Positions 7,500-62,500 of a stretch of DNA of 64,000 nt are shown piece by piece. The translations under genes and the position numbers were made by a program. Below the pieces are notes generated by a model. That model made no database searches. It was given only the letters and a program-made list of their open reading frames with translations, and was not told the DNA's origin. The DNA is from Candidatus Hadarchaeota archaeon (GTDB lineage: Archaea; Hadarchaeota; Hadarchaeia; Hadarchaeales; JAGGTB01). The stretch lies in the NCBI GenBank assembly GCA_964384105.1, contig CAYLJV010000003.1, positions 64,001 to 128,000 on the forward strand, in the 5' to 3' direction. Position 1 is the stretch's first letter, and each line of letters opens with the position of its first letter.

Positions 7500-7769
7500 A
7501 TGAGTGAAGTTAAATGCGCTGTACCTGGCTGTGATAATACTTTGACGGAAGATCAAAGGAATAAAAGAATTTCAGTGTGTTCTGACTGCGAGGCCGCGCA
7601 GATGCATCTTTGTGAATCTTGTGGGAAGCGTATTAGCGCTGATAGGATCAGTGATGGGGCGACTTTGTGTAAAGAATGCGAAGTTAACCCTAACGATTTG
7701 GTGGAAGGGGATACTTACAGTTACGAGGAGTACGAGGAAGAAGGAACTGAAGAAGATTTCATGGTTTGA
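7500..7769 (+). CDS. small double C4 Zn-finger protein with acidic tail (TraR/DksA-like finger)
   Basis: CAVPGC...CSDC and CESCGKRISADRISDGATLCKEC; GGAGGAG RBS upstream. Confidence 0.7.
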   Translation: MSEVKCAVPGCDNTLTEDQRNKRISVCSDCEAAQMHLCESCGKRISADRISDGATLCKECEVNPNDLVEGDTYSYEEYEEEGTEEDFMV

Positions 7770-39627: not shown

Positions 39628-41775
39628 TTGAAGATTCTTCTAGTCGATGATGAAAAAGATATTTTAGAACAAGCTAAAATCTTTCTTGAAAGAAAAGAAA
39701 AATTAAAAGCCGAAACGATTACTTCTCCAAAAGAAGCTCTCAAGAATTTAGTTAATGGAGAGTTTGATGCTATTGTTTATGACTATCAAATGCCGGGAAT
39801 GAATGGCTTGGAGTTTCTTAGAGTAGTGAGGGAAGAAAAGAAGAGTGACATACCATTCATCATCTTCACGGGGAAGGGTCGAGAGGAAGTAGCGATGAAA
39901 GCTCTCAATCTCGGAGCAAATCGATACCTTAGAAAGGGTGGGGACCCTGTGACACAGTATGAAGTTTTAGCCGGTGCGATTATCGATGAAGTTGAACACA
40001 AGAGAGCTGAGAAAAGGGCGGAATCCTACGCTAGAGACTTGAAAGAGACTTTCAACTCCCTACAGGAGATAGCTTTCCTGTTAGATGAAGACCACAATAT
40101 TATTTTGGCAAATGGTCATGCCGAGAAGTTTTTTGGGAAATCGGAAGAGGAACTTAAAGACTTCAAATGCTACGAACTGGCTCACGGGACCGATGAGCCT
40201 ATCGAGGGGTGTCCTTTGAAAAAGACTTTTGATAGTAGGGAAATGGAGGAGCTGGATTTTTATGATTCAAATAAAGGGAAATATTTCCTCGCCAGAACAC
40301 ACCCGATTTTTACAGGGGAGGGGGAACCAGAAAAGTTCGTTCATCAGGTAATTGATATCACGAAGAGGAAAAAGAAGGAAGAAGATTTGAAAATCTACAA
40401 GGATCGACTAGAAACTGCCATGGAGGCGGGTAATCTAGCTTGGTGGGAGATGGAGCTACCTTCGGGGAAAGTGAGATTCAACGATAGGAAGGCGGAGATG
40501 CTGGGATATTCTCCTGGCAGATTCGAGCATTACGAGGATTTTACAGATCTTTTGCACCCTGAAGATCACGATAAAGCGATGCATGCTATGAGAGATCACC
40601 TTGAAGGTAGAGCACCTAGATATGAGGTTGAATATAGAATAAAAATGAAATCGGGCGATTATAAGTGGCTTAGGGATGTAGGTGCGATTACTGAGGACAG
40701 CGAATCAAACGATTACAGAAAAGTCACGGGCGTTGTTATTGATATTGATGAAAGAAAGAAAAAAGAGGAAAAATTACAATTTCAATCAGATATATTGGAA
40801 CAGATAGAAAATGCAGTAATAGTCACGAATTTGGAAGGAAAGGTTACCTATTGGAACAAAAAAGCTGAGGAGCTATACGGTTGGAAGGAAGAGGAAGTTC
40901 TAGGAGAGAACATTGTCGATGTTACTCCTTCGTTAGCATCTAAAGATCAAGCAGAAGAGATAATGGAGAAATTACAAAAGGGAGAGAAGTGGTCTGATGA
41001 ATTTCTGGTTCAAAGAAAAGATGGTACTGAGTTTAATGCTATCGTGACTGATGCACCCATATACAATGAAGATGGAGAAATTACGGGTATCGTTGGAGTT
41101 TCCACTGATATTAGCAAGCGTAAAGAGTTAGAGGAAAGGGAAAAGTTTCTACATTCCTTGTTGAGGCACGATGTTAGAAATAAGATGCAGATCGTCCAGG
41201 GTTACCTCGAGCTTTTGAAAGATTTTGATCTCCCAAAGGAAGCGGAGTCTTTTCTCGAAAAAGCTATGAGAAGTAGTTACGAGGGTATGGAAGTTATTGA
41301 GAAAGTTAGAACTCTAAGAAAGGCTAGTGAGGAAGAGACCAAGAGTGTAAACATTTGCTCGATGATCTACGATAGTTTGGATAATTGGAAATCTTGGGCC
41401 GAGGACGCGGGAATGGAAATAAATGTAGATTTTCCAGAGTCGAAGTGCGTGGTGAAAGGTGGTTCTCTCTTAAACGAGTTATTCTCTAATCTTGTGGAGA
41501 ATTCCATACAGCATTCCGGTGGAGAAATAATCGAGATTTCAGGTGAAATAATTGATAGCGAATTTGTCTGTGTAATAGAGGATAATGGACAGGGTATTGC
41601 TGACGAGAATAAAGATAGGATCTTCGATAAGGGATACACGACGGATGAGGGTCGTGGATCCGGCCTTGGACTGTTTCTGGTAAAGGCGCTTTTGGATATC
41701 TATGGTGGGGATATTGAGGTTGGGGACTCCGAGCTCGGCGGAGCTAAGTTCGAGATTCGGTTGAAAATGGCATAG
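39628..41775 (+). CDS. hybrid sensor kinase: REC-3xPAS-HisKA-HATPase
   Basis: VDDE, DYQMP, RHDVRN, EDNGQG, GSGLGL. Confidence 0.92.
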   Translation: MKILLVDDEKDILEQAKIFLERKEKLKAETITSPKEALKNLVNGEFDAIVYDYQMPGMNGLEFLRVVREEKKSDIPFIIFTGKGREEVAMKALNLGANRYLRKGGDPVTQYEVLAGAIIDEVEHKRAEKRAESYARDLKETFNSLQEIAFLLDEDHNIILANGHAEKFFGKSEEELKDFKCYELAHGTDEPIEGCPLKKTFDSREMEELDFYDSNKGKYFLARTHPIFTGEGEPEKFVHQVIDITKRKKKEEDLKIYKDRLETAMEAGNLAWWEMELPSGKVRFNDRKAEMLGYSPGRFEHYEDFTDLLHPEDHDKAMHAMRDHLEGRAPRYEVEYRIKMKSGDYKWLRDVGAITEDSESNDYRKVTGVVIDIDERKKKEEKLQFQSDILEQIENAVIVTNLEGKVTYWNKKAEELYGWKEEEVLGENIVDVTPSLASKDQAEEIMEKLQKGEKWSDEFLVQRKDGTEFNAIVTDAPIYNEDGEITGIVGVSTDISKRKELEEREKFLHSLLRHDVRNKMQIVQGYLELLKDFDLPKEAESFLEKAMRSSYEGMEVIEKVRTLRKASEEETKSVNICSMIYDSLDNWKSWAEDAGMEINVDFPESKCVVKGGSLLNELFSNLVENSIQHSGGEIIEISGEIIDSEFVCVIEDNGQGIADENKDRIFDKGYTTDEGRGSGLGLFLVKALLDIYGGDIEVGDSELGGAKFEIRLKMA

Positions 41776-44129: not shown

Positions 44130-46661
44130 ATGAGGGTTCTGTTTGTTGATGACGAGCCTGACATCTTAGAACAGGCAAAACTCTTTCTCGAGAAAGAGAA
44201 AGATGGACTGGATATTGACACTGTTATTTCTGCTGGGAAAGCTCTGGAATTGTTTGAGAAAAACGATTATGATTGTATTGTTTCGGATTACCAGATGCCT
44301 GAGATGGATGGGCTTAGCTTTTTAAAAATTTTAAGAAATGAAAGGCAAAATAGCATTCCATTCATAATGTTCACCGGTAAAGGTCGTGAAGAAGTTGCTA
44401 TAGAAGCCCTTAACTTGGGAGCAGATCGTTATCTACAGAAGGGTGGAGATCCACGGTCACAATATGATGTTTTGGCTCAGGCGATAATCCAAGAGATTGA
44501 ATACAGTCAAATGGAGGAAAGGGAAAACTTCTTCGAGATTTCAGCTACTCACGCCCCCGAAGCTATTTTCGTGTCCGATAAGAATGCAAATATTATTTAT
44601 GTTAACAAACAAGCATCTGAAAATCTAGGTTATTCTATCGAGGAATTGGAAGATATGAAAATTTTTGATCTTGATCCAAACTTTTCCTCGAAAAATTGGA
44701 ATCAACATTGGAAAAAGTCACGTAAAAAAGGAAAAACAAGGATTGAATCTGACCATATAAAAAAAGATGGAACAAAATTCTCTGTAGAGCTTCTGATTAA
44801 TCATATAGAACATATGGGTGAAGAATATCACTTCACATTTGCAAGGGATATCACCGATAGAAAGAAAATGGAGAAAGAGCTCTCTTTTGAGTCTGATTTG
44901 ATGGAGTCTCTTATGGATAATCTCCCTGATTTCGTATACTTCAAGGATGAGGATGCCCGTTACGTGGAAGTTAGTGAAAGTTACGCTGAAATGATTAATA
45001 TGGAAAAGGATGAGATTATCGGGAGGAAAGTGACGGATCTTTATTCTGAAGACGAGGGCAATAGGATGCATGAGGATGATTTGAGAGTGATAGAAGAGGG
45101 TGGAAAGATAGTCGACAAGGAAGACAAGATTACCATCCCTAATGGAGAAACCAGATGGATGTCCACTACAAAAATTCCAAGGTATGACGATGAAGGTAAT
45201 GTTATAGGAATGTTTGGTGTTTCTCGAGATATTACGGATAGAATGAGGTTAGAGAAGAGAATCGCTAATGAGAGAGACATGTTTGTGGAGGGGCCGGTTG
45301 TGGTCTTTAGCTGGTTAAACGAGTCGGGTTGGCCTATCGATTATGTTTCTCCTAACGTTGAGGAAGTCCTTGGTTACGAACCAGAGGACTTCACGGGTGG
45401 TGATCTTGTCTATACTGACGTCATAGCTGATGAGGACGTAGATAAAGTGATAGAAGAGAACCGGGAGGCTAGTGAGAGAGGGGAACCAAGGTTTGAACAT
45501 TCCCCTTATAGGATAGTCAAGAAGAACGGGGATGAGATCTGGGTTTACGATCTTACGACGATAGTTAGAAATGACAAAGGCGAGATAACTCGCTATCAGG
45601 GATATATTCTCGACATTACCCAACAGATGGAGAGAGAGGAGGAATCGAGATTATCCAAAGATATAATCACGAAGAGCCCTATTGTTGTGTTCTTGTGGAG
45701 GAATGAGGAGGGGTGGCCTGTGGAATTTGTTACTGAAGATGTTGTGGATATTTATGGCTACAGTCCTGAGGATTTTACTTTCGAAAATATGAAATTCATT
45801 GATACTATTCATCCTGATGATCGGTCAAGAGTCAGAGAGGAGGTTATTGAGAGCAGTAAGAAGGGACGAGAGAGAATCTCACATGAACCTTACCGTATAA
45901 TTACGAGGGAGGGAAATGTTAGATGGATCAAAGACGAAACTTACATCAAAAGGGACGAGAAAGGTAATATATTGAACTATCGGGGTATTCAAGAAGACAT
46001 CACTCAAAGGAAAAAGGCAGAGGAGAGGGAGGAATTTCTACACTCATTACTTAGACATGATGTTCGTAACAAGGCTCAAATTGTTCAGGGTTATTTGGAG
46101 CTTCTTAGGGATACTGACCTTTCAGAGGAGCAGAGTGAACTTATTGAGAAGGCCAGTAAAGCTTCAGAAGTAGGAGTAGATATTATTGAGAAGGTTAGAA
46201 CACTTCGAAAGGTAAGTGAAGAGAGGAGAATTAGTGAAGTTGGTATCAGAGTGATTCTTAAGAACGTGATCAGTGGGAAGGAATCACAGGCTTCGGAAAG
46301 GGATATAGAGATAGATTTTGAAATGGAGGGTTGCAAGGTTCTAGGAGGTCCCCTATTGGAGGAGCTATTCTCAAACTTAGTGGAAAATTCCATCAAGCAT
46401 GCTGACTGCGAGAAGATCCGAATATCCGGAAGAAAGACGAGTGAAGAGTGTATAATTACAGTCGAGGATGATGGTAAGGGAATTTCAGACGAAGATAAAA
46501 ACAAAATTTTCGAAAAAGGGTTTAAAAGCGGCAAAACTGGCGGTTCAGGACTTGGATTATTCCTTGTGAAGGAAATAGCTGAGTCTTACGGTGGTAGTGT
46601 TGAAGTCAATGACTCGGAACTAGGAGGCGCAAGATTCGACGTTCATTTGAAGAAAACCTAA
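44130..46661 (+). CDS. hybrid sensor kinase: REC-4xPAS-HisKA-HATPase
   Basis: VDDE, SDYQMP, RHDVRN, EDDGKG, GSGLGL. Confidence 0.92.
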   Translation: MRVLFVDDEPDILEQAKLFLEKEKDGLDIDTVISAGKALELFEKNDYDCIVSDYQMPEMDGLSFLKILRNERQNSIPFIMFTGKGREEVAIEALNLGADRYLQKGGDPRSQYDVLAQAIIQEIEYSQMEERENFFEISATHAPEAIFVSDKNANIIYVNKQASENLGYSIEELEDMKIFDLDPNFSSKNWNQHWKKSRKKGKTRIESDHIKKDGTKFSVELLINHIEHMGEEYHFTFARDITDRKKMEKELSFESDLMESLMDNLPDFVYFKDEDARYVEVSESYAEMINMEKDEIIGRKVTDLYSEDEGNRMHEDDLRVIEEGGKIVDKEDKITIPNGETRWMSTTKIPRYDDEGNVIGMFGVSRDITDRMRLEKRIANERDMFVEGPVVVFSWLNESGWPIDYVSPNVEEVLGYEPEDFTGGDLVYTDVIADEDVDKVIEENREASERGEPRFEHSPYRIVKKNGDEIWVYDLTTIVRNDKGEITRYQGYILDITQQMEREEESRLSKDIITKSPIVVFLWRNEEGWPVEFVTEDVVDIYGYSPEDFTFENMKFIDTIHPDDRSRVREEVIESSKKGRERISHEPYRIITREGNVRWIKDETYIKRDEKGNILNYRGIQEDITQRKKAEEREEFLHSLLRHDVRNKAQIVQGYLELLRDTDLSEEQSELIEKASKASEVGVDIIEKVRTLRKVSEERRISEVGIRVILKNVISGKESQASERDIEIDFEMEGCKVLGGPLLEELFSNLVENSIKHADCEKIRISGRKTSEECIITVEDDGKGISDEDKNKIFEKGFKSGKTGGSGLGLFLVKEIAESYGGSVEVNDSELGGARFDVHLKKT

Positions 46662-47690: not shown

Positions 47691-47936
47691 ATGTCAAAGA
47701 AAGCTACAACACTTTATCTTGATGAGGGAACAGTAAAGGAAGCTAAGAGATTAGGTTTTAACTTATCCAGGTCTTGTGAAATAGCGTTAGAACGGAGAAT
47801 ACTGGCTGAGAAACGCAGGTTATCATTCGATTATTCGGAAAACTCTAAAGAAGTCAAACCTAAAATTAATCCTACAGTGATTGCGGGGGTTGCCAAGTCA
47901 GGTCAACGGCGCAGCGTTGAGGGCGCTGTCCCATAG
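47691..47936 (+). CDS. CcdA-like ribbon-helix-helix protein, homologous to the integrase N-terminus and reading into tRNA-Leu
   Basis: TTLYLDEGTVKEAKRLGFNLSRSCEIALERRI vs integrase ITVQISKSLVERAEEEGLNVSKSCELALERRI. Confidence 0.75.
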   Translation: MSKKATTLYLDEGTVKEAKRLGFNLSRSCEIALERRILAEKRRLSFDYSENSKEVKPKINPTVIAGVAKSGQRRSVEGAVP

Positions 47937-47970
47937 GGGTTCCGGGGTTCGAATCCCCGCCCCCGCACCA
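47883..47970 (+). tRNA. tRNA-Leu(GAG)
   Basis: GCGGGGG/CCCCCGC acceptor, CAGCG-TTGAGGG-CGCTG anticodon arm, variable arm, GGTTCGAATCC, CCA. Confidence 0.97.
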
Positions 47971-49650: not shown

Positions 49651-49794
49651 CTAGCCCAGAGAGTTGAATTTATCCAAAATATCTTTTTTAATCTCTTCTT
49701 CAGTCTCCAAAGAATCTAAAACTATAATCACTTCTTCTTCAGTCAGATCATAGAGATTGAATACAATTGCATCAATTAAATTATCTGTTTCTTG
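49651..49794 (-). pseudogene. C-terminal remnant of an Eco57I/type IIG-like restriction-modification enzyme
   Basis: QETDNLIDAIVFNLYDLTEEEVIIV...*, matching the ID..V..LY.LT.EE tail motif; no upstream gene body. Confidence 0.6.
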
Positions 49795-50251
49795 TCATCA
49801 GTGTGGAAAAGAAATTCAAGACAACGATGAAGTAATAGTTATGGATTATAGGGGAGATTATACAGACATAACTGATCTTTGGATTTATCATAAAAGCTGT
49901 ATAGACCCCATATCAATAGAAAGAGAGAAAGTTCTCGATAATGGAAAATGGAAAGTAGTTAAAGAAAATCTTAAATAATTGTATTAATCCAATGCATTCT
50001 TTGAAAAAATGATAAGAAAAGAATTTCTGAAATAACTCACAGAATATTATTTTACGTCGAACCTAAGAAACATTCAAGTATTAATTGATGGAAATAGAAA
50101 AATCTTATTTTGCGAGTGGTTTAAAACGGTTACCAAAATAATCGGAATTGTAAACCTTCTATTCTTCCAGAAGTGTTTTACGAGTGGTATAGAAAATGAT
50201 AGGGGAAGATGAACTCTTCTCAAAAATATAAGGGGTTAGAGGTCCGATTTT

Positions 50252-50785
50252 ATGGCTGATACTAAGTATAAGGTTAACAATGTCGTCATGACTGTTTCTT
50301 ACGAGAATACTAGATTTAACTTGGAGGAACTTACTTCTAATTTAGAAGGGGCAAGATATGAACCTGAAAGCTTCCCTGGAGTAATCTATAAAACGATCGA
50401 GCCTAAAGCCGCTTTTCTGATATTTTCTTCTGGAAAAGCGAACTGTGTAGGAGCGAATAGTGTCGAAGGAGGGAAGAAGGCAATAGAAAAGCTTACAGAT
50501 AAACTTCAAGATTTAGGGTTTGGTGTTGGTGAGCCAGTCATTGAAGTTCGGAATATGGTTGCTAAAGTGGATTTTCAGAGGAGTTTCGATCTGGAGGAAA
50601 TAGCAAGGAACTTTCCTCACGCAGAATATAATCCAGAAACATTTCCAGGACTCGCATTCAGATTGGAGGGGTATAAGAGTATGATATTTCTGCTTTTTAC
50701 ACAGGGCACAGGGGTCTGTGTCGGAGCTAAGAGTGAGGAAGAGATTGAGGAAGGTATAAGAAGAATAGAAGAGGCCATCGAATAA
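50252..50785 (+). CDS. tbp: TATA-box binding protein (TBP) paralog
   Basis: Two repeats: YEPESFPGVIY...LIFSSGK and YNPETFPGL.FR...LLF..G..VC.GAK. Confidence 0.93.
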   Translation: MADTKYKVNNVVMTVSYENTRFNLEELTSNLEGARYEPESFPGVIYKTIEPKAAFLIFSSGKANCVGANSVEGGKKAIEKLTDKLQDLGFGVGEPVIEVRNMVAKVDFQRSFDLEEIARNFPHAEYNPETFPGLAFRLEGYKSMIFLLFTQGTGVCVGAKSEEEIEEGIRRIEEAIE

Positions 50786-50882
50786 GAATCTTAAAAATTC
50801 TACAAGTTAGAAAAACATGAAACAATCTATGGCATGGATCAATCCAAACCTACTAGACTAGTAGTTACCCACTTATGACTAT

Positions 50883-50996
50883 TTAGATTAACATTGCAGT
50901 AGCATCCAACTCTATCTGACAGTGAATACACCTGTCCCTGCCATCTTCAATAGTTTCCTTGCTAAGTTTTTTACCACACTCAACACATTTCTTCAT
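50883..50996 (-). CDS. 37-aa C4 Zn-finger micro-protein, copy 1 (not in ORF track)
   Basis: MKKCVECGKKLSKETIEDGRDRCIHCQIELDATAMLI*; AGGAG RBS and TATAAATA upstream. Confidence 0.85.
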   Translation of the reverse strand: MKKCVECGKKLSKETIEDGRDRCIHCQIELDATAMLI

Positions 50997-51132
50997 TATC
51001 AAAACTCTCCTTGATCGGCCCTAAGGTCTGAAGCACTATTTATAGGTCACTGTTTGCAGGGTTGAAAAGTGGAAATATGAGTAATGATGACTAATTCTTT
51101 TAATTCCGGAGGATTATTTGGGAATACTTAAA

Positions 51133-51245
51133 GGAGAGGGGAGAGTAGTTCATACGAAGTCAAGTTTATTGGACGTTACTAAACGTCCACCTTAAACCCG
51201 AGCTGGGCGGTCCCCCCCGACCGTTCAGCTTCCTCCCCCCTTCTC
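51133..51245 (+). ncRNA. candidate structured ncRNA (closing stem plus two hairpins)
   Basis: GAGAGGGG/CCCTTCTC; TGGACGTT-ACTA-AACGTCCA; AGCTGGGCGGTC-C6-GACCGTTCAGCT; TTTTAATT box about 30 nt upstream. Confidence 0.45.
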
Positions 51246-51344
51246 AAAAATTTATTTATATTCATAGACTTCTCTCGAGAGAAGGAACTAAATCAAATGT
51301 TCACAGATGATATCTCTACAGGGAAGAGAACGTATTGTTAACTT

Positions 51345-52298
51345 TCAATACACTTCTACCTCTTCATCGAGCTCTTCAGCTAGTTCTTTGTACCTGTTTC
51401 TAACCGTGACTTCGGTAACGTCTGCAACTTCTGCCACTTCTCTCTGGGTTCTCCTTTCACCACATTTCAGCGCGGCTATGTAGAGTGCTGCTGCAGCTGT
51501 TCCAGAAGGAGTTTTGCCCGATGTCAATTTTTCTTCTTGTGCCTTCCGAATTATCTTCATAGCTTCAACCCTGGCTTCATCTGATATATTCAGCTCGCTT
51601 CCGAACCTGGCTACATACCTGCTTGAGTCCGTGGGGGGAAGATCAATGTCTAATTTTCTTGCAATAAATCGATAGGTGCGTCCTATCTCTTTTTTATCCA
51701 CTCGGCTAACTTCAGTTACCTCTTCGAGAGTTCTGGGCATTTGAGCTTCCCGACAGGCTGCGTAGAGAGTAGCTGAGACCACTCCCTCTATCGAACGGCC
51801 TCTAATTAAATCAGCGTATAAAGCTTCCCGATATATTTTGGAAGTATTTTCTCTCACGTTTCTCGGTAAACCAAGCTGAGAGGCCATCCGATCCATCTCA
51901 GAAAGGGCGAAAGCTAGGTTACGGTCCTTGGCACCTGAAACCCTAATACGTTTTTGCCATTTTCTAAGACGGTACATTTTATAGCGTTTTCCTGGAGACA
52001 GGGTCTTTCCTCGACTGTCTCTATTGCTCCAATCGATTTGGGTTGAGAGCCCCTTATCGTGAATAGTGTACGTCATTGGAGAGCCTCCCCGACTGCGCTC
52101 TTCTCTTTGCTCTTGACTGAAAGACCTCCACTCAGGCCCCCTATCCTTAATATCTTCCTTTATAACAAGGCCGCAGCTCCTGCAAACAATCGTATTCTGT
52201 TGATAATCCCTGACAGTAACACTATTCCCACAATTAGGACAATGAAACTCTGAACTTCTGTTCTTCACTTTCTTAGAGGAATAAGTATCGGTCAACAA
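51345..52298 (-). CDS. tfb: transcription initiation factor IIB (TFB) paralog
   Basis: [45 protein letters not shown]. Confidence 0.96.
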
Positions 52299-52409
52299 TA
52301 TTCTCTATCCTGATCATTCCTGTTAGTTTTTCCTGAAAGAACAAATTTTCAATTGGTTCCAAAAGGATTGTCCGTTAATTCTGCACTATATTCCGGCTTC
52401 TTTAGCATA

Positions 52410-52487
52410 CTACTCCTCTAAGTTTCTCTCGATCCACCTTACCTTCTCATCAGCAGTCATACTACTCCAGTTATCTGGAACTTTCAT
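52410..52487 (-). CDS. 25-aa micro-ORF upstream of tfb
   Basis: GAGG RBS then MKVPDNWSSMTADEKVRWIERNLEE*; a 19-aa ORF follows immediately (52349-52408). Confidence 0.4.
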   Translation of the reverse strand: MKVPDNWSSMTADEKVRWIERNLEE

Positions 52488-52581
52488 AATTCCTCATCTA
52501 TTCAGTTATCTCAAAGTAATCAACTATCTTGTTTATGGGTAGAGTGGTCACTGGAAGTGAACAGAAAATTGACAAATCATC

Positions 52582-52607
52582 TAAGCGGACTAAATGGTTT
52601 AATCAGG
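52582..52607. repeat. 26-bp bipartite motif TAAGCGGAC-N7-KTTAATCAGG, copy A (B 52928-52953, C 57649-57674)
   Basis: Three same-orientation intergenic copies with fixed spacing. Confidence 0.8.
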
Positions 52608-53035
52608 CCACCTCTTATCATAGGTGAGGTCTTGATTGAGTAATAATAAAAACACTTTACAAGGAGAACCAAGATAGAATTGTTTGTCCTGCCGGAAAGA
52701 TATCCAAAATATATCCTTAAGTCATCAAACCTCGGAAATTTTTTAAAGTGATGCCGAGGAATTTCAGTTCTCTTTGCTTTCAATTAGTTCAAGAAATCAC
52801 GAATCAACGGGGGATTGCCAGTCCCGGCAGGGCTTTTCCCTTTATATCAAGTATGTCTTTTTATGCAAAGTCGCAGGACTCTCAAGCTATTGTAATAATT
52901 TTGAATTAAATATCTCCTATATGAAGATAAGCGGACAATTTAGGTTAATCAGGCTAGCCAAGTAATTTGGTTATTGTCTGAAGAGGGGAGATTATAATGA
53001 AAAGAGTTAGACTACCAAGTAATTTCCCCATGGTA

Positions 53036-53088
53036 GAGCGTCGATACCGCTATACCCTCAATCTATGGCATGGTTGAGTCGAAACCCG
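53036..53088. repeat. ~53-bp double-hairpin repeat (second copy 58340-58392, partial copy 50823-50850)
   Basis: GAGCG-N7-CGCTATACCCTCAATCTATGGCATGGTTGAG-N3-AAACCCG. Confidence 0.85.
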
Positions 53089-53116
53089 CTAATAGTAGAG
53101 GCCCAATTGCGATTTT

Positions 53117-53230
53117 TTAAATTAACATCGCAGTAGAGTCCGACTCGGTCTGACAATTAAAACAACGGTCCCTGCCCTCTTCAATAGCTTCCTTACTCAA
53201 TTCTTTTCCACACTCTATGCACTTTTTCAT
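53117..53230 (-). CDS. 37-aa C4 Zn-finger micro-protein, copy 2 (not in ORF track)
   Basis: MKKCIECGKELSKEAIEEGRDRCFNCQTESDSTAMLI*; same length, RBS and TATA as copy 1, with synonymous divergence. Confidence 0.85.
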   Translation of the reverse strand: MKKCIECGKELSKEAIEEGRDRCFNCQTESDSTAMLI

Positions 53231-53780
53231 TTTCAATTCACTCCTTGATCAGTCCCAGAGAAAGAAGTTCTATTTATAAATTATGAATATCTCTTTTCAA
53301 GTTATTTCAGTTATTTCTTCTATGAACTCTCCAGCAAGCTCGACTTTATTGCCAAAACTTCTTATTAACTGTTTGGATTTACTTTCAGAGAAAAAAGCTC
53401 CTTTTACTCGCAATACATACTTTAGTTACCAACCTCGTAAATTTTTATCCCAAAAAACCGGATTTTACTTGAATTAGCTTCCTAATTGAACGAAAAATCT
53501 GAAGGAATCAAACCCGGGTCTTTTACTTATAAATAAAACCCTTGAAGTCCCTTTTCTTTATAGATAATTGGGCTTACAGGGGATTTATCTCCGAATAAGA
53601 CAAGTTGTTTTACTATATAGATAGTTTTCTTCTGTTTTTATTCCTTAGAAAGGTAAAAAAGAAAGTAAAAGCATGAAGGTGGCCTTCACGAAATTCCGAG
53701 AGAAGTTGGAAAATCAAGATTGAAATCACGAACCGAAAAGCATTTAATTTCAAATTCTGAGTTCGGGAAGGTGAGTTTGA

Positions 53781-53976
53781 GGGGCCGGGATTGTTACCCT
53801 TTCGCGGGCAGGTTGAAAAGCAGCCGATCGGTAGCCGACCGAAGCAGAGCCTGCCGGCATCGCCCGACCCCTGTGCCCCATTCTCAGTAAAAACAAGGAG
53901 GTGAGAAACCCCGAAGGGACACCAAAACCGCCAGTGTTGAAAACTCGGTTCCTAAAGAGAAGAAGTTCACCGGCGG
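53781..53976 (+). ncRNA. candidate structured ncRNA, copy 1
   Basis: GC-rich, shares conserved blocks and stems with 56347-56551; CGAAAAGCATTTAATT BRE/TATA at 53734-53749; T-tract near 54020. Confidence 0.6.
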
Positions 53977-54243
53977 AATCGTAAAACACATGACAATTAA
54001 TGTTATTAAACGAGGAATTCTTTTTGGCTTACTCCCTCCCATATATAATTTAACAATATGTTAAAAATATTCCTATTTTCTGTAATTCTACCTTCACAAA
54101 ACTTTAGCATAAGTAAATAAAAAGAATAAGGAGAGGTCCCTTGGTTCTGAAGAAGGGTCAGGGAGTTCCTCCATTTTTTTACTTTCACCCAACTCAGACA
54201 ACCGCTTAACAGTACATAACCAAAGAGTTAAATCTATGATAAA

Positions 54244-54507
54244 TTGGGAAGGCCCATACCTACTTTCAGATATGTAATCGAGAAAGAGATAGAAAATTGG
54301 AAAGAGTTCAAGAGAGCTTTGAGTAGGAAAGACAAAGAGATTTTCAATAGGATCATGGAGTACTGTAGGAAACACATTCCAGCTTGTTCTCAGACCAACA
54401 ATCCAGAACCCTTTCGGCCTATGATTATTTCTATTATTCTAGAGCAACTAAAGAAATTGAATTTTCCTGAAGAAGCTATCTCGAAAATTCAAGAGTTGAT
54501 AGAATAG
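54244..54507 (+). CDS. small helical protein resembling the PolB2-associated arCOG07300 family
   Basis: MGR..PTFR...W..F.RAL...D...F......R.H.......P.P....ISI.LEQ pattern, recognised from memory of the family. Confidence 0.6.
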   Translation: MGRPIPTFRYVIEKEIENWKEFKRALSRKDKEIFNRIMEYCRKHIPACSQTNNPEPFRPMIISIILEQLKKLNFPEEAISKIQELIE

Positions 54508-54571
54508 AAAGAATAAATTCAAAAGGGCAGAAACTATTTTGGTTTTTTACTTCTGTTTTTCTTTAATTGAC

Positions 54572-55507
54572 TTAATATGTTTCCAATTCAATTTCGAGTT
54601 CTTTGGCCACATCCTTATACCTGTTCCTGACAGTGACCTCGGTCACCCCCGCCACCTCAGCAACAGATCTCTGGGTTACTCTCTCCCCACCTTTCAAGGC
54701 GGCTATGTAAAGACACGCAGCAGCCGTCCCACTGGGACTCTTGCCCGAAGTCAGTTTTTTCTCTTGGACTCTCTTAATCAAATACATAGCATTCGTTTGG
54801 ACTTCTCCAGAAATACCAAGCTCACTACCAAAACGAGTCACATAACTGGCCGGATCAGTCGGGGGAAGGTGGATATCTAACTTTCGTGTTAAAAACATGT
54901 AACTACTAGTGATCTTCTTCATCTTAACTCGGCTTACCTCTTCGATCTCCTCAAGAGTTCGAGGCATCTTTGCTTCACGACATGCTGCATAAAGTGTAGC
55001 TGATACGACACCTTCGATTGATCTACCACGAATCAAGCCCTTTTCAACAGCCTCTCTGTAAATTTTTGACGCGATCTCCTGCGTACTTCTCGGCAGACCC
55101 AGCTGAGATGTCATCCTACTCATCTCACCAAGTGCAATGATCAAATTTCTATCACCTGAACTAGCGATCCTGCTTCGATTATGCCACTTTCTCAGTCGGT
55201 ACATCTGCTGGGACTTTTTTGGAGACAGATTCTTACCCTTCGCATCTCTGTTCTTCCAGTCAATATTAGTGGAAAGTCCTTTATCGTGAATAGTGCCCGT
55301 TGAAGGAGGCCCGGATCTCTTTTTATTCTGATATTCTTTGGCACTGAAAGCTCGCCATTCTGGACCCCTGTCCTTAATACTCTCTTCTATGATCCTACCG
55401 CAATCAGCACATATTCTAACGTTTTGCTGATAATCCATAATCCTGGAGGTACTACCACAGTTCGGACATTTAGCGGATGCTTTCTCAGAACCCTTAATAG
55501 AACTCAC
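54572..55507 (-). CDS. tfb: transcription initiation factor IIB (TFB) paralog
   Basis: [45 protein letters not shown]. Confidence 0.96.
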   Translation of the reverse strand: MSSIKGSEKASAKCPNCGSTSRIMDYQQNVRICADCGRIIEESIKDRGPEWRAFSAKEYQNKKRSGPPSTGTIHDKGLSTNIDWKNRDAKGKNLSPKKSQQMYRLRKWHNRSRIASSGDRNLIIALGEMSRMTSQLGLPRSTQEIASKIYREAVEKGLIRGRSIEGVVSATLYAACREAKMPRTLEEIEEVSRVKMKKITSSYMFLTRKLDIHLPPTDPASYVTRFGSELGISGEVQTNAMYLIKRVQEKKLTSGKSPSGTAAACLYIAALKGGERVTQRSVAEVAGVTEVTVRNRYKDVAKELEIELETY

Positions 55508-55990
55508 ATTATTACTCTTCTTCCCATCTACTAGTACTTTCCTCCGATTTTTCAGAATACGCTAAGGAGGAACTTAAGTAGTTCAAAAATGATTTTGAAA
55601 AGCCAGCCAAATATAAACTCTAACTCTACACCAAAAACACTTAAAAACTCGAAAACATCAAAAATACACTCAATCGATAAATAAATACCTAAAAAGTCTT
55701 AGAATTTTGTTCCAGACCATAAATATTCTTAAATAAGGTGACAGAACACCATATTTATTCTCATAGGGAATCCAGTTAACTCTTTCATAAAAGTTAAAAA
55801 TTAACTAATTGTTTTTCAATCAAAATATCAATTTTATCCATATAAAATTCATACCTATATCATCTTAGATGATATGGTAAAATCGGAATATTGATAGTTT
55901 TTAGTTTTTAGAAGTTTTTACTGAAATGAGAAATGAATAGTTTCTAAAGAGAAAGTAGATAAGAATTGAAAATGGTGGATAAGGTTTTAA

Positions 55991-56242
55991 TTGTATCCAA
56001 GATTAGGAGGATTTGGAGGGGTTACAATGAGCAAAACTAATCAATCAGTCACAGAAGAAGATGATGAGATTTTCAGCAATGAAAGATTTGCAGAAACAAC
56101 AATACAGAGGATAAGCAAGTATGTAAAAAATTACGGTGAGAAGGACAAGGAGGATATTTACAAGCTACTGAAACGGTGTTATGTGGCTCTGTGCCGATTG
56201 AGGAATTGGGAGCCACAAGATCTCGACAAATTCAGGGATTAA
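55991..56242 (+). CDS. small hypothetical protein
   Basis: GGAGG RBS before MSKTNQ (56027). Confidence 0.55.
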   Translation: MYPRLGGFGGVTMSKTNQSVTEEDDEIFSNERFAETTIQRISKYVKNYGEKDKEDIYKLLKRCYVALCRLRNWEPQDLDKFRD

Positions 56243-56346
56243 TGCATTATTTGGATGGTTATCTCCGATTTAACTTGAAAAATCCTAAATAAAAAATCGA
56301 AAAGTATTTTAATTCCAAAACAGTGATTTTGATAGATTGAAAATAA

Positions 56347-56551
56347 GGGGCCGGGATTGTTACCCTTTCGCGGGCAGGTTGTTGCCTATACCAGTTTAGG
56401 TCGGTCGCCAACCAACCACAGAGCCTACCGGAACGCCCGGCCCCAGAGCCCCCTTAAACCGAGCCAATGGGGAGGTGAGAAACTCCATAGGGGGACTCAT
56501 TCCGCCGGTGTTTGTAAATTCTGTCCTCAAGAGAAGAAAAGATACCGGCGG
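56347..56551 (+). ncRNA. candidate structured ncRNA, copy 2
   Basis: First 35 nt identical to copy 1; GGGGCCGGG/CCCGGCCCC and CCGCCGGTG/TACCGGCGG stems; CGAAAAGTATTTTAATT promoter at 56298-56314; T-tract near 56601. Confidence 0.6.
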
Positions 56552-56817
56552 GAGCTTGATAATGGAAATGTTAACTAAAGCATCTGAACTAGAAAGAAGC
56601 CTTTTCTTTAATCCACCCCCCCAATTGATTCATCGGAATTAAACTCCGTATGCAAAGACCCTTTGCCATCTGAATGTGTGCATTTAAATTTTACGAATTG
56701 TGTCGAAAGTTTTAGGGCAAGGATTTTGTTTGAAACTGTGGAGCTTATGGTTCACTTAAGGTAAATAATGAGGAGAGTTCAACAAATTTTCAGTTAAAAA
56801 CTCCTATTTTTTAGTTT

Positions 56818-57075
56818 CTAGCTACGAGGAAGCAAATTCCTCATCTGATGGTATTTTTCGAGAAATTTTGAGCCCTTTTCAGTTAAATCCCACTGTAAAG
56901 GCGAGTGGGCCCTTACTTCAACGAGACCATTTTTCCGTAGCTGTTCGAGATACTCATTGCATCTCTTAAAGTTCAAGTTTGCTTTATAAACAATATGGGT
57001 TTTTCGAGATTTATGTTTAACAGCTGTTAGAAGATCTGCATAAACATCGAATCTTGTTCTTCGGTCCCTACCCAT
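56818..57075 (-). CDS. archaeal winged-helix transcription regulator (COG3432/HTH_45-like)
   Basis: RRTRFDVYADLL...KTHIVYKANLNF...YL..L...GLV...LTEKG..FL. Confidence 0.85.
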   Translation of the reverse strand: MGRDRRTRFDVYADLLTAVKHKSRKTHIVYKANLNFKRCNEYLEQLRKNGLVEVRAHSPLQWDLTEKGSKFLEKYHQMRNLLPRS

Positions 57076-58321: not shown

Positions 58322-58409
58322 ATTCAAACTTACATGATAGAGCGTATCTGACGCTATACCCTCAATCTATGGCATGGTTGAGGCCAAACCCGATTAATAC
58401 TTACCTTAA

Positions 58410-59438
58410 TCAGAGAATTTCAATTCCAACTTTATCATATATCTTCTTCAAGTGCTTTGGTGTTTGTCCATTGTAGTTTCTCAAGTCAATACTTCCGAAG
58501 TGCCCAAGTAACATTTCCTTAATGTCAGTTGATCCGCCTTTCCTATCCCATTCTTGTGAGAAGAACTTCCTGCAGTGCTTCAGTTTTAGGTCTGGTTTTT
58601 CATCCATCTTGTTTGTAATGAGATAGATAGCCTTGTGAATGAATGGTCTTTCAGGAAACATTCCCTTCAACTTCTTCAGTCTCTTCTGTGCCTTTTTGTT
58701 GAAAACTACAATTCTTTCTCCTTTGGTCTTGGTCTCCTCCGCTGGAAGATTGATAATCCTATCATCGAGATTAATATCCTCCCAGTCTAACCTGTAAACC
58801 TCCCAGGGCCTCATCCCAGTAACAGCAGAAAGGTGAACTGCAGTCTGTGCTCTGTAAACGTATTTGTGTTCAGTGCCCTCGTGATCTAATTCATCCATAA
58901 GATTGAGAATATCTTCCTTCTCCACTATCTTAGGCCTGTGTTTACTCAAATTGGGTTTCTTGATCTTCTCAATCCAGTAAACGTTCATCTCCTTGAAGAA
59001 CTGCTTGATTGCTTGAATGTCATCGGAGAGAGTTCTGTTAGAAACCTCATCTCTTCTCTCGTTAAGATAATCAGTCACATCATTGAGACTGCAGGACCAA
59101 TTCACGTGTTCTCCCAGTTTTTCTAATTTTCCCTTAACTGCATTTATTCTTAGAGAACTTCTACCAGCCGCTTTTAGTCTGTTACAAAACTCTTCTATAT
59201 CTTTCTTCGAAAATGAGACCTTGTGATTATTGCCTTTGTTTCCATTACCATTCGGATAACTTCCATTTTGTGGTTTGAAGTTGTGATTGTTTGCTACATT
59301 GGAGTCTATTTCCTCTAGAGTTATGATTCTTCTCTCCAGAGCTAATTCACAGGACTTAGATACATTAAGCCCCTCTTCCTCGGCCCTCTCAACTAAACTT
59401 TTGGATATTTGAACTGTAATTTTATCTTCTATATTCAT
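58410..59438 (-). CDS. tyrosine recombinase/integrase with N-terminal CcdA-like RHH domain
   Basis: TGMRPWE (R), TKTK (K), KHCR (KxxR variant), LLGH, RNY (Tyr); likely start MNIEDK. Confidence 0.92.
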   Translation of the reverse strand: MNIEDKITVQISKSLVERAEEEGLNVSKSCELALERRIITLEEIDSNVANNHNFKPQNGSYPNGNGNKGNNHKVSFSKKDIEEFCNRLKAAGRSSLRINAVKGKLEKLGEHVNWSCSLNDVTDYLNERRDEVSNRTLSDDIQAIKQFFKEMNVYWIEKIKKPNLSKHRPKIVEKEDILNLMDELDHEGTEHKYVYRAQTAVHLSAVTGMRPWEVYRLDWEDINLDDRIINLPAEETKTKGERIVVFNKKAQKRLKKLKGMFPERPFIHKAIYLITNKMDEKPDLKLKHCRKFFSQEWDRKGGSTDIKEMLLGHFGSIDLRNYNGQTPKHLKKIYDKVGIEIL

Positions 59439-59440
59439 TT

Positions 59441-59495
59441 GATTCAGGGTGCAGTACACTCTAACTCGTACATAAAGGTCGCTCTGAGGAGGATC
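59441..59495. repeat. 55-bp conserved block, copy 2, in the divergent integrase/kinase promoter region
   Basis: 51/55 identical to 44004-44058. Confidence 0.9.
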
Positions 59496-59570
59496 AAGTT
59501 TAAAAAAGGAGTTTAAAAGTGAAATCACGTGTTTTTTTAGCTTATTACTTATATAACATTAACAATAGAT

Positions 59571-62500
59571 ATGAAAGTTCTTCTCGTTGATGATGAGCCT
59601 GATATTTTAGAACAGGCTAAAATCTTTCTCGAAAAAGAGGAGGAAAGGTTGAGTGTTGAAACTGTTGCTTCAGCTAGGGAAGCTCTGAATTTATTGGAGA
59701 AAAACGAATATGATGGTATAGTATCGGATTACCAGATGCCTGAGATGGATGGGCTTAGCGTTTTAAAAATTTTAAGAAAGGAAAGGCAAAATGGCATTCC
59801 ATTCATAGTGTTCACCGGTAAAGGTCGTGAGGATGTGGCTATGAAGGCCTTGAATCTTGGGGCCGATCGTTACTTGCAGAAGGGCGGTGATCCTAGGTCT
59901 CAGTATGGTGTATTGGCACAAGCTATAGTCCAAGAGATCGAGCATTGGAAGCATAAAAGGGAATTAAGGAGTATTGGTTGGCTTCTCACAAAGGGGGTAG
60001 AAGAAACAACTTACGAACCACCTTATGACGATCTAACAGAGCTGAATACTGAAAGAACGATATTGGACTCCATAGGAAAAGACCTGCTTCAAGATATTGT
60101 GGATCATTTTATGAGCTTACTTGACACTTCAAGTGCAGTCTACGAGAAAAATGGTGATTATGCATTAGGAATCTTCGCTTCCAAATGGTGTAAATTCATG
60201 GATAAAAAATCCAGAGATCTCTGCAACAAAGATGATAATCAAGAAGCATTAGATTGTGGAAAATGGATCTGTCACGAATCCTGTTGGAATGCTGCAAAAA
60301 TCTCAATGGAAAAGGGTAAACCTGTCGACGTTGAATGCAGCGGAGGAATAAACCTGTACGCAGTTCCAATCCGAGCGGATGGAGAAATTATTGGCTCCAT
60401 AAATTTCGGTTATGGAGAACCGCCAAAAGATCCAGACAAGTTAGAAGAGCTCTCAGAAAAATACCAGGTAAGTATTGAGGAACTCCGTAAAAATGCGAGT
60501 TCATACGAACCTCGTCCTCATTTCATTATTGAAGTTGCCAAGAACAGGTTACGAACTTCAGCCAGACTGATAGGGGAAATCGTGAGAAGAAAAAGGTCTG
60601 AAAGAGAATTAGCAAAGGAAAGAGATAGAGTTCAAAAGTATCTGGAAACCGCTGAAGTAATGATAGTAGCGATAGGCAAGGACCACAAAGTTATGGAGAT
60701 AAACAGAAGAGGTTGTGAAATACTCGGTTATGATAAGAAAGAAATTATTGGAAAAGACTGGTTCGAGAATTTCATTCCTGAAAGAACGAGAAAAAGCTTG
60801 CTTAAGGAGATTCTAGAGCCGTTGATGGAAGGAAATATTGACAAAGCCCAAAGGCATGAAAATCCTGTACTGACCAAAGACGAAGAAGAGAGAATTTTGT
60901 CCTGGAGAAATACCGTGCTAACTGACGATACTGGAGAAATCATCGGAACTCTAAGCTCAGGAATGGACATTACCGAACAAAAAGAAATGGAGAACGAGCT
61001 GCGTGAGAGTGAGGAGAAGTACAGGCGACTTTTCGAGACCGCTCAAGATGGAATGCTTATACTGAACGCCGACTCCGGAGAGATAATGGATGCTAATCCT
61101 TACATTCAAGAACTTTTGAGTTATTCGAAGGAGGAGCTTGTGGGAAAGGAGCTCTGGCAGATAGGAACCTTTAGGGATATTGTTGAGAACAAGGAGAAGT
61201 TTGAGGAGTTGGTGGATGAGGATTATATTCGTTACGAAGATATGCCTCTGGAAACGAAAGGCGAAGAGGAGGCTTCGGTCGAGTTCGTCAGCAATACGTA
61301 CGAGGCCGGTGGAGAAAAAGTAGTGCAGTGTAACATCAGAGATATTACGGAGAGAAAGAAGGCTGAAGAGGAGTACAGGAATCTTTTCGAAACTATGGCT
61401 CAGGGCGTGGTTTATCAGGATTCTGAAGGAAACATTATTTCGGCCAACCCTGCTGCTGAAAGGATGTTGGGGTTGACGGTTGATCAGATGAAGGGGCGGA
61501 CTTCTAGACATCCTGAGTGGAAGGCAATTAGGGAGGATGGGAGTCCTTTTCCTGGAGAGGAACATCCTGCCATGGTTGCTCTACGAACGGGAGAGGAAGT
61601 GAGAGATGTCGTTATGGGTGTTTACCATCCTGAAAAAGAAGACCATGTCTGGATCAATATAAATGCATTACCTCGGTTTCGGGAAGGTGAGGAAGAACCA
61701 TACCAGGTGTATACTACGTTCGAGGACATCACTGAGCGGAAGAGAGCGGAGGATAAACTCCGTGAGAGAGTCAAAGAATTAAGCCTGTTTTACAATTTTT
61801 CGAAGCTTGTTGAAGAGTTGGGGAATTCTCTGGAGAATATACTTCGGGGATTAGTGGATTTGATTTCTCCTGCGTTGCAGTATCCAGAGATAACCTGTGC
61901 CAGATTAGTTTTGGATGATGAGGAGTTTAAAACAGACAATTATGAGGAATCCAAGTGGAAACTGAAAAGCAATATTCTTGTGGAAGAGGAGAACAGGGGT
62001 TTTCTCGAGGTTGATTATTTAGAAGAAAAACCTGAACTGGACATAGGTTCTTTCCTAGAAGAAGAAAGAGATCTCTTAGAGGCTATCACAGAACGATTGG
62101 GCAAGATAATAGGCCGACTTGAATTAGAAGAAAAAGTCCGAGAGAGTGAGGAAAAATTCAGGAGTTTGTTCGAGTCTTCCCAGGACGCGGTTATGGTTCT
62201 TAAACCGCCCAAATGGGAGTTTACCTCTGCCAACCCGGCTACCGTGGAAATGTTTAGGGTGGAGGACGAGTCCGATTTTTGCTCGAGACCGCCAAGGGCG
62301 TATGCCCCTGAAAAACAACCGGACGGTCAGTCGTCCAAGGTAAAAGCGAAAAAGATGATCGACAAAGCGATGAGCGAAGGTGAGGTTTTCTTTGAATGGA
62401 CACATAAACGGTTAGATGGTGGGGAATTCCCTGCCACGGTTTTACTAAGTCGAGTGGAGGTCGGAGAGGAGAGTTTTTTGCAAGCTACAGTGCGAGACAT

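Follow-up and report, generated by a model that had tools for sequence, protein, structure and literature searches.

The 64,000-nucleotide (nt) stretch of Hadarchaeota DNA analyzed here, called the window, contains two very short open reading frames (ORFs) on either side of a gene for the archaeal transcription factor TFB, and it raises the question of whether these ORFs are genes, what their products might do, and whether their position beside TFB says anything about their function. The window corresponds to positions 64001-128000 of contig C3 in genome G000 (1.62 Mb, 12 contigs, 90% complete). In the original prediction, ORFs at 50883-50996 and 53117-53230 were described as unannotated genes for micro-proteins with a zinc finger resembling that of the bacterial proteins DksA and TraR, and a role as modulators of RNA polymerase (RNAP) or TFB was proposed. 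Both ORFs are found at these positions on the minus strand, flanking the gene denoted TFB1. The analysis described below indicates that they are genuine members of an undescribed gene family, and this part of the interpretation, taken alone, is held with high confidence. The full interpretation, in which the products also have a protein-binding adaptor or regulator role and the flanking of TFB1 results from insertion or duplication of a small cassette, is judged to have a little better than an even chance of being correct.

Evidence for coding

The two ORFs, denoted copy A and copy B, are each 114 nt long and encode 37 amino acids (aa). The A protein is MKKCVECGKKLSKETIEDGRDRCIHCQIELDATAMLI and the B protein is MKKCIECGKELSKEAIEEGRDRCFNCQTESDSTAMLI, with an identity of 76%, and their cysteine motifs are CVECG or CIECG followed by CIHC or CFNC. 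The ribosome-binding site and the upstream box that had been reported for each ORF are present: the Shine-Dalgarno sequence AAGGAG lies 10 nt ahead of the ATG in both copies, and a TATA-like box, (C/T)TATAAATAG, is located ~40-50 nt upstream of each ORF. The same signals are kept in the congener G002, both at its ortholog of the micro-protein gene and at a 57-aa paralog. The sequence shared by the two copies extends over a duplicated unit of ~225 nt, consisting of a 5′ flank of 50 nt (34/50 identical), the ORF, and a 3′ flank of 61 nt (44/61 identical); in the next 100 nt on either side, the identity falls to the background value of ~49%. RNA folding of the 3′ and 5′ flanks of A and B gave no significant result (z = −1.7, −0.74, +1.3 and +0.2).

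The substitutions between A and B consist of 13 synonymous and 11 non-synonymous changes, which correspond to proportions of synonymous (pS) and non-synonymous (pN) differences of 0.66 and 0.12 and to a ratio of non-synonymous to synonymous divergence (dN/dS) of 0.08. The synonymous divergence dS is ~1.6. The first and second codon positions are identical at 64/74 sites and the third positions at 23/37. The ortholog in G002 is also 37 aa long, with a protein identity of 81%, saturated synonymous sites and the same promoter box, and dozens of divergent homologs whose DNA differs retain all four cysteines in an unbroken frame. Judged from this substitution pattern, A and B are genuine coding genes under purifying selection, and the earlier argument that the silent differences imply coding is upheld by the counts. 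The exact A, B and G002-ortholog sequences were not found among ~15 billion predicted proteins, which agrees with their description as unannotated and indicates that gene callers overlooked all three.

Contigs of four DNA runs were compared with the window, and those of one run, from another sample of the same study, cover the region 50200-55338 with few differences. The joints observed there connect paralogous TFB and promoter stretches, mostly in contigs of low identity, and they were given no weight.

The single-finger family

The distribution of homologs was determined using profiles of increasing size. With a profile of five sequences, matches at E ≤ 1e-3 were obtained in 7/65 genomes of the order; besides G000, these are 3/8 genomes of the window's own taxonomic family and 3/46 genomes of another family. 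A profile of nine sequences searched against 1.84 billion representatives gave 163 proteins at E ≤ 1e-3, 14 of them at E ≤ 1e-10, where the numerous long, multi-stretch matches covering the first knuckle only (profile positions 2-20) were excluded from the family. A profile of 22 sequences searched against 5.8 billion clusters gave 27 short proteins and, in addition, 4 that are longer and fused. Among the family matches, informative source names were limited to "hypothetical protein" of candidate division MSBL1 archaea. According to these searches, the family is rare and confined almost only to Hadarchaeota and MSBL1. A match of 26 residues at 50% identity in an Acetatifactor metagenome-assembled genome, returned by the search for related loci, was regarded as spurious; the sole other return of that search was a contig of G002.

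As shown by alignment A8, which collects 41 members of the Hadarchaeota/MSBL1 single-finger family as defined in this analysis, three cysteines are invariant and the fourth is nearly so. The two CxxC motifs are separated by 15 residues in 37/39 of the members that have all four cysteines and by 14 residues in the other 2/39. After the second CxxC, the conserved C-terminal helix has the pattern x2-E-[DE]-x-[AG]-x-[AG]-M, so that the family pattern reads C-x2-C-[G]-x2-[ILV]-[ST]-x-E, the 15-residue spacer, and C-x2-C-x2-E-[DE]-x-[AG]-x-[AG]-M. A and B fit this pattern and score 74-77 bits against the family profile. The isoelectric point is below 7 in 41/41 members, with a median of 4.5. The free-standing members are 37-75 aa long and have variable N-terminal extensions, either acidic or basic, and some have acidic ends such as IYDLEE or APEEFGF.

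The finger with its tail also forms the C-terminus of three kinds of longer proteins. These are proteins of 143-147 aa with N-terminal hydrophobic segments (P0016, P0019 and P0181), proteins of 226-329 aa with an N-terminal His/Cys-rich domain and several hydrophobic segments (P0178-P0180), and P-loop ATPases followed by hydrophobic (transmembrane) segments (P0037 and P0136), one of which bears an intein. No Pfam family accounts for the fused partners, and comparison with a protein atlas returned unnamed clusters only, at 0.91. No description of the family was found in the literature on Hadesarchaea zinc fingers, archaeal small zinc fingers and archaeal DksA/TraR or in four family libraries; it is an undescribed family without a Pfam or NCBIfam model. 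Three further ideas, namely a LysW-type carrier (EDWGE end), a PCNA-binding PIP box and an HbYX proteasome tail, were set aside because the respective motif is missing.

Comparison with known zinc fingers

The AlphaFold2 model of A has a pLDDT of 84.5 and a pTM of 0.50 and shows a single compact domain composed of a knuckle, a helix at residues 13-17 and a helix at residues 24-36. In the Foldseek search of the PDB with this model, no chain was obtained at E ≤ 1e-3, and the best match was YbiI at E 0.16. The top rows include YbiI, DksA (TM 0.77 on the query), a chlamydial Dks, DksA2 and TraR. In the VIA-align comparison with 48,161 chains, TraR ranked first (Z 3.7, root-mean-square deviation 1.4, 37/37 residues), followed by papillomavirus E6 and eL43 at Z 3.6, and none reached Z 5; zinc ribbons of ribosomal proteins also occur in this comparison, with Z 2-3.6. 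The rows from the BFVD viral library mix DksA-like, HNH, E6, TFIIE and anti-sigma fingers, none of them at E ≤ 1e-3. In sequence comparisons, the RpoP model NF001605 matches the first knuckle (residues 1-15) with E 5e-4 and 19.9 bits against a cut-off of 63, and Rpo12 appears in the PDB sequence-profile search at E 0.032.

The profile comparison with the DksA/TraR finger gave no match that reached threshold. For PF01258, which has a cut-off of 24.9 bits, the scores are 11.2 bits for A (E 0.38) and 12.1 bits for B (E 0.2), and 6/41 family members match at E ≤ 1, the best at E 0.063. A six-frame search of the genome with PF01258 did not return A or B at E ≤ 10. It returned four places, namely a 238-aa protein above the cut-off and three weaker ones that include the ORF at 7500-7769 and its paralog on contig C6. 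The NCBIfam model PRK11019 gives 14 bits against a cut-off of 96 (E 0.05). The best of all DksA-type scores was obtained with phrog_54, "DksA-like zinc-finger protein"; the E values, 0.0097 (A) and 0.0013 (B), are borderline and sub-threshold. The alignment of the single-finger family with Escherichia coli DksA by hhalign has a probability of 10.8%. The PDB sequence-profile search gave TraR at E 0.72 and DksA at E 1.6; apart from these, its matches were confined to designed zinc fingers, in their C2H2 linker and first knuckle.

In the passages of PMC9239242 drawn on here, DksA and TraR are defined by an N-terminal helix or coiled coil with a DxxDxA motif that enters the secondary channel of RNAP, the finger has a CxxC-17-CxxC spacing, and the arginine pair R48/R49 in the globular domain of TraR contacts the rim helices. 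A and B share with this finger (TraR 5w1s/6n57, DksA 7khi, YbiI 2kgo) the layout CxxCG...CxxC(Q) and a helix that begins at the second CxxC. However, the spacer of E. coli DksA has 17 residues and that of the A/B family 15. A and B have no N-terminal helix with DxxDxA, for which there is no room because the first cysteine is residue 4 of 37, and none is conserved in the N-terminal extensions of the longer aligned homologs. Equivalents of R48/R49 were not found; the arginine pair in "GIRRLE" of DksA aligns to E14/T15 of A, in the hhalign alignment of 10.8% probability. The part of DksA/TraR that reaches the active site of RNAP is wholly missing from A and B, as the original prediction had stated for the N-terminal tip, and their host is an archaeon. 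The finger likeness itself, which the prediction had also pointed out, recurs faintly across methods; every match is sub-threshold, the spacer differs, and in the fold comparisons E6, eL43, HNH and other fingers score equally. On the sequence scores and the modelled fold, the likeness appears to be that of a common small finger shape, possibly with a remote relationship behind it, rather than membership in the DksA/TraR family.

A closer relationship is found within the same genome. The second finger of the 89-aa, two-finger protein at 7500-7769, whose likeness to A and B had been noticed before, aligns to the single-finger family in hhalign with a probability of 95.3% and E 2.3e-8, far beyond chance. 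This protein belongs to a separate family of ~90-aa proteins that comprises a paralog at G000 C6:62833-63114 and 8 further relatives, and that forms 9 clusters among the 5.8 billion. In their alignment, A9, the third-last residue is F in 10/10 members, and 8/10 end in FMV. For the two-finger family, hhalign with E. coli DksA gives 49%, and the PF01258 score of the second finger is 15.7-16.8 bits. It resembles A and B in the CxxCG-x2-IS...C-x2-C layout and occurs in the same group of organisms. It differs from them in having an additional N-terminal finger and a long acidic tail, whereas A and B are bare fingers ending in E-x-D-x-T-A-M-L-I.

Similar small proteins are known from other archaea. 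The one-domain C(P)XCG micro-proteins of Haloferax volcanii (HVO_2753 and HVO_0758, among others) are, like A and B, shorter than 70 aa and have one finger with two CxxC motifs, the first being CxxCG; as far as described in the sections of PMC6562870, PMC10716476 and PMC11241148 considered here, Haloferax zinc-finger micro-proteins are often missed by annotation, and their roles are pleiotropic or unassigned. A and B fit the definition of archaeal one-domain zinc-finger micro-proteins as worded in those sections of PMC11241148 and PMC10716476, which is a length of up to 70 aa and a single domain with two C(P)XCG-type motifs. However, no sequence relationship to the HVO_2753 family of NCBIfam is detectable (E 0.064 for A, none listed at E ≤ 0.1 for B), and the A/B family differs from the Haloferax proteins in its phylum, its fixed 15-residue spacer, its E-[DE]-x-[AG]-x-[AG]-M helix and its fusions to membrane proteins. 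A precedent for a role in transcription is Brz, the bacteriorhodopsin-regulating protein of Halobacterium salinarum, a small archaeal zinc finger encoded beside a gene of the process that it regulates, according to the relevant part of PMC2253796. The likeness to Brz is one of description only, and Brz adjoins its target gene, whereas the adjacency of A and B to TFB is not conserved in relatives.

Genomic context

The coordinates of the features are summarized in Table 1. On the minus strand, the genes follow the order TFB2 (55507-54572), B, TFB1 (52298-51345) and A. The genome contains ~8 full-length TFB paralogs with identities of 54-81%, besides partial or distant ones, and two TBPs. A micro-protein gene lies near only 2 of the ~8 TFB genes, namely TFB1 and TFB2. 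A recent tandem duplication of a unit of TFB and micro-protein was considered and rejected, because TFB1 and TFB2 are only 66% identical and each has a closer paralog elsewhere in the genome (76% and 80-81%).

Table 1. Positions of the micro-protein genes and associated features in the window.
Feature	Position	Strand	Basis or remark
89-aa two-finger protein with acidic tail; second finger homologous to A and B	7500..7769	+	hhalign; own family of 9 proteins
TBP2, second TBP paralog, convergent with A	50252..50785	+	PF00352 E 2.9e-46
Putative att-like direct repeat, copy 1, core only	50823..50855	.	27 nt beyond stop of A
Copy A, gene for 37-aa acidic four-cysteine (C4) zinc-finger micro-protein	50883..50996	-	ORF, dN/dS, G002 ortholog, AlphaFold2 model
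Predicted promoter and 5′ untranslated region (UTR) of A (TATA-like CCTATAAATAG, AAGGAG Shine-Dalgarno site)	50997..51046	-	Likeness to B flank
Element X, structured-RNA-like, just upstream of A	51114..51241	-	Conservation, predicted pairs
TFB1 (TFIIB/TFB paralog), between A and B	51345..52298	-	PF00382 E 1.8e-47, PF08271 E 6.6e-15
Putative att-like direct repeat, copy 2, hairpin arm and core	53029..53091	.	25 nt beyond stop of B
Copy B, paralogous 37-aa micro-protein gene	53117..53230	-	ORF, identity to A, dN/dS
Predicted promoter and 5′ UTR of B	53231..53280	-	Sequence, likeness to A flank
TFB2, upstream of B, same strand	54572..55507	-	PF00382 E 1.7e-44; 66% identical to TFB1
Putative att-like direct repeat, copy 3	58333..58395	.	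15 nt from integrase stop codon
Tyrosine recombinase (integrase), strain-specific	58410..59528	-	PF00589 E 1.3e-11; phrog_1 E 1.2e-24

In the congener G002, the orthologs of TFB1 and TBP2 are convergent and 37 nt apart, and no micro-protein gene lies between them. Relative to G002, the window has ~475 additional nt (50802-51276) between TFB1 and TBP2, which contain element X, copy A with its promoter, and the core repeat of copy 1. The X element and the micro-protein ortholog of G002 are located together at another place, after a CinA-like gene. The neighbourhood survey, in which an association of the homologs with transcription genes had been looked for, found no TFB or TBP neighbour at 7 homolog loci in six other genomes. 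The neighbours surveyed, 20 ORFs of at least 80 aa at six loci and 3 ORFs at the G002 locus, include a PAS histidine kinase, MscS, a CinA-like protein, a P-type ATPase, TtuA, dCTP deaminase, AAA_14 and one TrmB/MarR-type regulator. As judged from these loci, the linkage of the micro-protein to TFB is not conserved, and the flanking of TFB1 is a feature of this genome.

Three att-like direct repeats with overall identities of 82-87% lie at the ends of the segments concerned; two of them belong to the conserved 3′ flanks of A and B, and the third occurrence of this flank sequence is the one near the integrase stop. Copies 2 and 3 are 87% identical over 60 nt, and copy 1 has the core of 33 nt without the hairpin arm of 23 nt. 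The core contains the inverted repeat CCCTCAA ... TTGAGG, as read from the sequence. The left arm is common to copies 2 and 3 and the right arm to copies 1 and 2. This gives the pattern B-O-P′, P-O-P′ and P-O-B′, as would be expected if insertions had occurred in tandem at a single attachment site. The distances between the repeats are ~2.2 and ~5.2-5.3 kb, and each segment bounded by them holds one TFB paralog and one micro-protein gene. The repeat was found at only these three places in G000 and in 0/60 relatives. The att-like core is not recognizable as a fragment of a tRNA: the Rfam search of 50800-56700 was negative at E ≤ 1, a single tRNA reached the gathering score of Rfam across the window, ARAGORN detected tRNA-Ser and tRNA-Leu only, and the core bears no relation to the tRNA-Leu located at 47883-47970.

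The integrase is 372 aa long, and its best relatives within the genus are just 26-27% identical to it. The integron integrase model TIGR02249 gives 30 bits against a cut-off of 265, and the best model, archaeal XerA, gives 64 bits against 220; on these scores, the integrase is a generic tyrosine recombinase and not IntI. The arrangement of the repeats suggests site-specific recombination in this lineage as the most likely origin of the layout with two copies around TFB1, with the repeats as putative att sites.

Element X is 79% identical over 128 nt to the stretch upstream of the G002 ortholog and adjoins the micro-protein gene directly upstream in both G000 and G002. It is confined to the genus, with 1-3 matches per genome, and has its own TATA-like box. 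The predicted fold consists of a closing stem and hairpins with 33 predicted pairs, 3 of them compensatory, and X has no Rfam match. Copies of X outside the window are located at L024:4444-4569, G001 C35:1-131 and G002 C54:12626-12738; for the G001 copy, the translation of the downstream ORF hints at a candidate tRNA-like stretch.

Several other observations were made around these loci. Two contigs of G002, C48 (L006) and C12 (L057), end in a common sequence that is 94% identical over 189 nt, and one of them bears X and the micro-protein ortholog while the other bears the TFB1 and TBP2 orthologs; these common ends point to a repeat or a strain-variable junction beside both loci. On the same C12 contig of G002 (L057:240-389), a different cysteine-rich ORF of 49 aa (CPKCG ... 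C-x4-C) lies directly upstream of the TFB1 ortholog. Upstream of TBP2 in the window, a 73-aa ORF at 49757-49978 (+) has a CHQCG knuckle, a distal HKSC and sub-threshold matches to Pfam zinc ribbons, and it may be another unannotated small metal-binding protein. The number of TFB genes is unusually large for a genome of 1.6 Mb, and three of them are in the window (17505-18395, 51345-52298 and 54572-55507). On contig C12 of G000 (1584 nt) there is a TFB2 copy with an identity of 98%, which is a recent duplicate or else a strain variant unplaced in the assembly.

A GC-rich element of ~215 nt occurs at 53770-53990 and 56336-56560 in the window and at C4:51014-51223, C1:135669-135841 and C1:397614-397781 elsewhere in G000, giving five long copies with identities of 71-81%. 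The two window copies bracket TFB2 and share a block of 36 nt that is 100% identical. This element, a candidate multi-copy structured RNA, has a consensus fold of 44 pairs, 3 of them compensatory, and no Rfam match at E ≤ 1. Within the second of the segments bounded by the repeats, an 85-aa winged-helix protein at 56818-57075 (-) matches the Sso10a chromatin-protein family of NCBIfam (70.7 bits against 60). Three large genes for hybrid response-regulator/PAS/histidine-kinase proteins lie within 24 kb (39628-41775, 44130-46661 and 59571-63521), and a PAS kinase is also present at the micro-protein locus of G002.

Discussion

In the interpretation favoured here, A and B would be separately transcribed genes for acidic proteins of 37 residues, each composed of one pair of C4 knuckles and a short helix. 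The module would function as a metal-stabilized, protein-binding adaptor or regulator and not as a nucleic-acid binder, and the helix that follows the second CxxC may be its contact with the partner. A protein partner is proposed for two reasons: acidic fingers bind nucleic acids poorly, and C-terminal fusion of the kind observed is typical of recruitment modules. The free 37-aa forms could be soluble adaptors, or competitors for the same partner as the fused forms. The layout around TFB1 would have resulted from a small cassette, consisting of X, the micro-protein gene and the att-like core, that was inserted or duplicated beside the strain-specific tyrosine recombinase.

Several points weigh against this interpretation. 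The presumed metal binding is read only from the four cysteines, and in the part of PMC11241148 that concerns this class, 5/14 predicted archaeal C(P)XCG fingers were zinc-free, a difference that AlphaFold2 is unable to tell. The term adaptor denotes a class of putative mechanism, not a demonstrated one. Regarding the cassette, neither of the segments between the repeats includes the integrase gene, and neither an empty site nor a circle was observed. Each copy follows a TFB gene on the same strand, near the second TBP, a placement that is unlikely by chance for one event, given ~8 TFBs in 1.6 Mb. The homolog flanks that were compared are short, 1.5 kb at all loci but one (5 kb), and come from fragmented contigs.

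The position beside TFB could instead reflect a function in transcription, where the micro-proteins would modulate RNAP, TFB or TBP as a TraR/DksA-like finger at the RNAP funnel, as a decoy of the TFB zinc ribbon, or through their acidity, by blocking the surfaces with which TBP or TFB binds DNA. The location of both copies downstream of TFB paralogs, with A convergent with TBP2, is consistent with such a function, as are the recurrence of DksA/TraR-type models as a weak full-length match (phrog_54, PRK11019, VIA-align and Foldseek) and the value of 49% for the related two-finger family against DksA. However, these matches are all sub-threshold, the spacer has 15 residues and not 17, the N-terminal helix, DxxDxA and the RR pair are absent, and the TFB ribbon PF08271 gives no Pfam match to A or B at E ≤ 1. 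The finger is fused to membrane proteins and not to transcription proteins, most of the TFB genes have no micro-protein nearby, and neither the 7 homolog loci nor the TFB1-TBP2 pair of G002 combines a micro-protein with these factors, so that the modulator role advanced in the original prediction has found no backing and is regarded as distinctly unlikely. The micro-protein and X might, alternatively, serve the element rather than the host, as cargo or as a maintenance or regulatory factor of an integrative cassette, for example a recombination directionality or accessory factor. This would fit the position of the core, 25-27 nt after the stops of A and B and 15 nt after that of the integrase, with repeats unique to the genome; the joint occurrence of X and the micro-protein at different places in G000 and G002; the strain-specific integrase with neighbouring ORFs that match viral PHROGs of unassigned function; and the two G002 contigs that break at the common 189-nt sequence beside these loci. 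On the other hand, A and B are old paralogs (dS ~1.6) under strong purifying selection, the family members elsewhere have ordinary chromosomal genes as neighbours and no integrase within the flanks that were surveyed, and the core was not found next to the G002 ortholog. Known excisionases are basic DNA binders, whereas this protein is acidic. We consider a function of this kind unlikely. The two ideas can also be combined: the recombinase would have assembled repeat-bounded modules among TBP2, TFB1 and TFB2, and the fingers of DksA/TraR-like shape, one of them together with X, would act as decoys or blockers that bias the choice of the TBP/TFB pair or the use of the RNAP funnel, as a cassette-borne archaeal counterpart of the TraR of plasmids and phages. 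Its probability is judged to be low.

The matches to RpoP (E 5e-4) and Rpo12 (E 0.032), together with the ribosomal ribbons among the fold rows, could point to small nucleic-acid-binding or ribosome-associated zinc ribbons similar to RpoP/Rpo12, eL43 and the archaeal ribosome-bound zinc-ribbon proteins. However, these matches span one knuckle only and are far under the cut-off (19.9 versus 63 bits), and the family occurs patchily and within a single lineage. Ribbons that bind RNA or DNA are basic, and 41/41 family members are acidic; we regard this possibility as very improbable. The conservation of the flanks as well as the ORFs would be compatible with an untranslated, non-coding element as the conserved unit, an explanation whose probability appears close to negligible in view of the codon-position bias (64/74 versus 23/37), the dN/dS of 0.08, and the cysteines and frame kept in dozens of divergent homologs.

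If the adaptor and cassette interpretation is correct, the locus shows how a plausible guilt by association, a micro-protein gene beside TFB, can arise from a local cassette insertion. In the reading of low probability, in which a cassette carries a TraR-like finger, the micro-proteins would be the first TraR-like modulator of archaeal transcription. To our knowledge, most archaeal zinc-finger micro-proteins have no assigned function, and Hadarchaeota have no cultured representative. The present result adds an undescribed family, with genes that are uncalled in public annotation, to the growing class of archaeal zinc-finger micro-proteins. Because the family is small and has a sharp motif in both free and membrane-tethered forms, a search for its partner is tractable.

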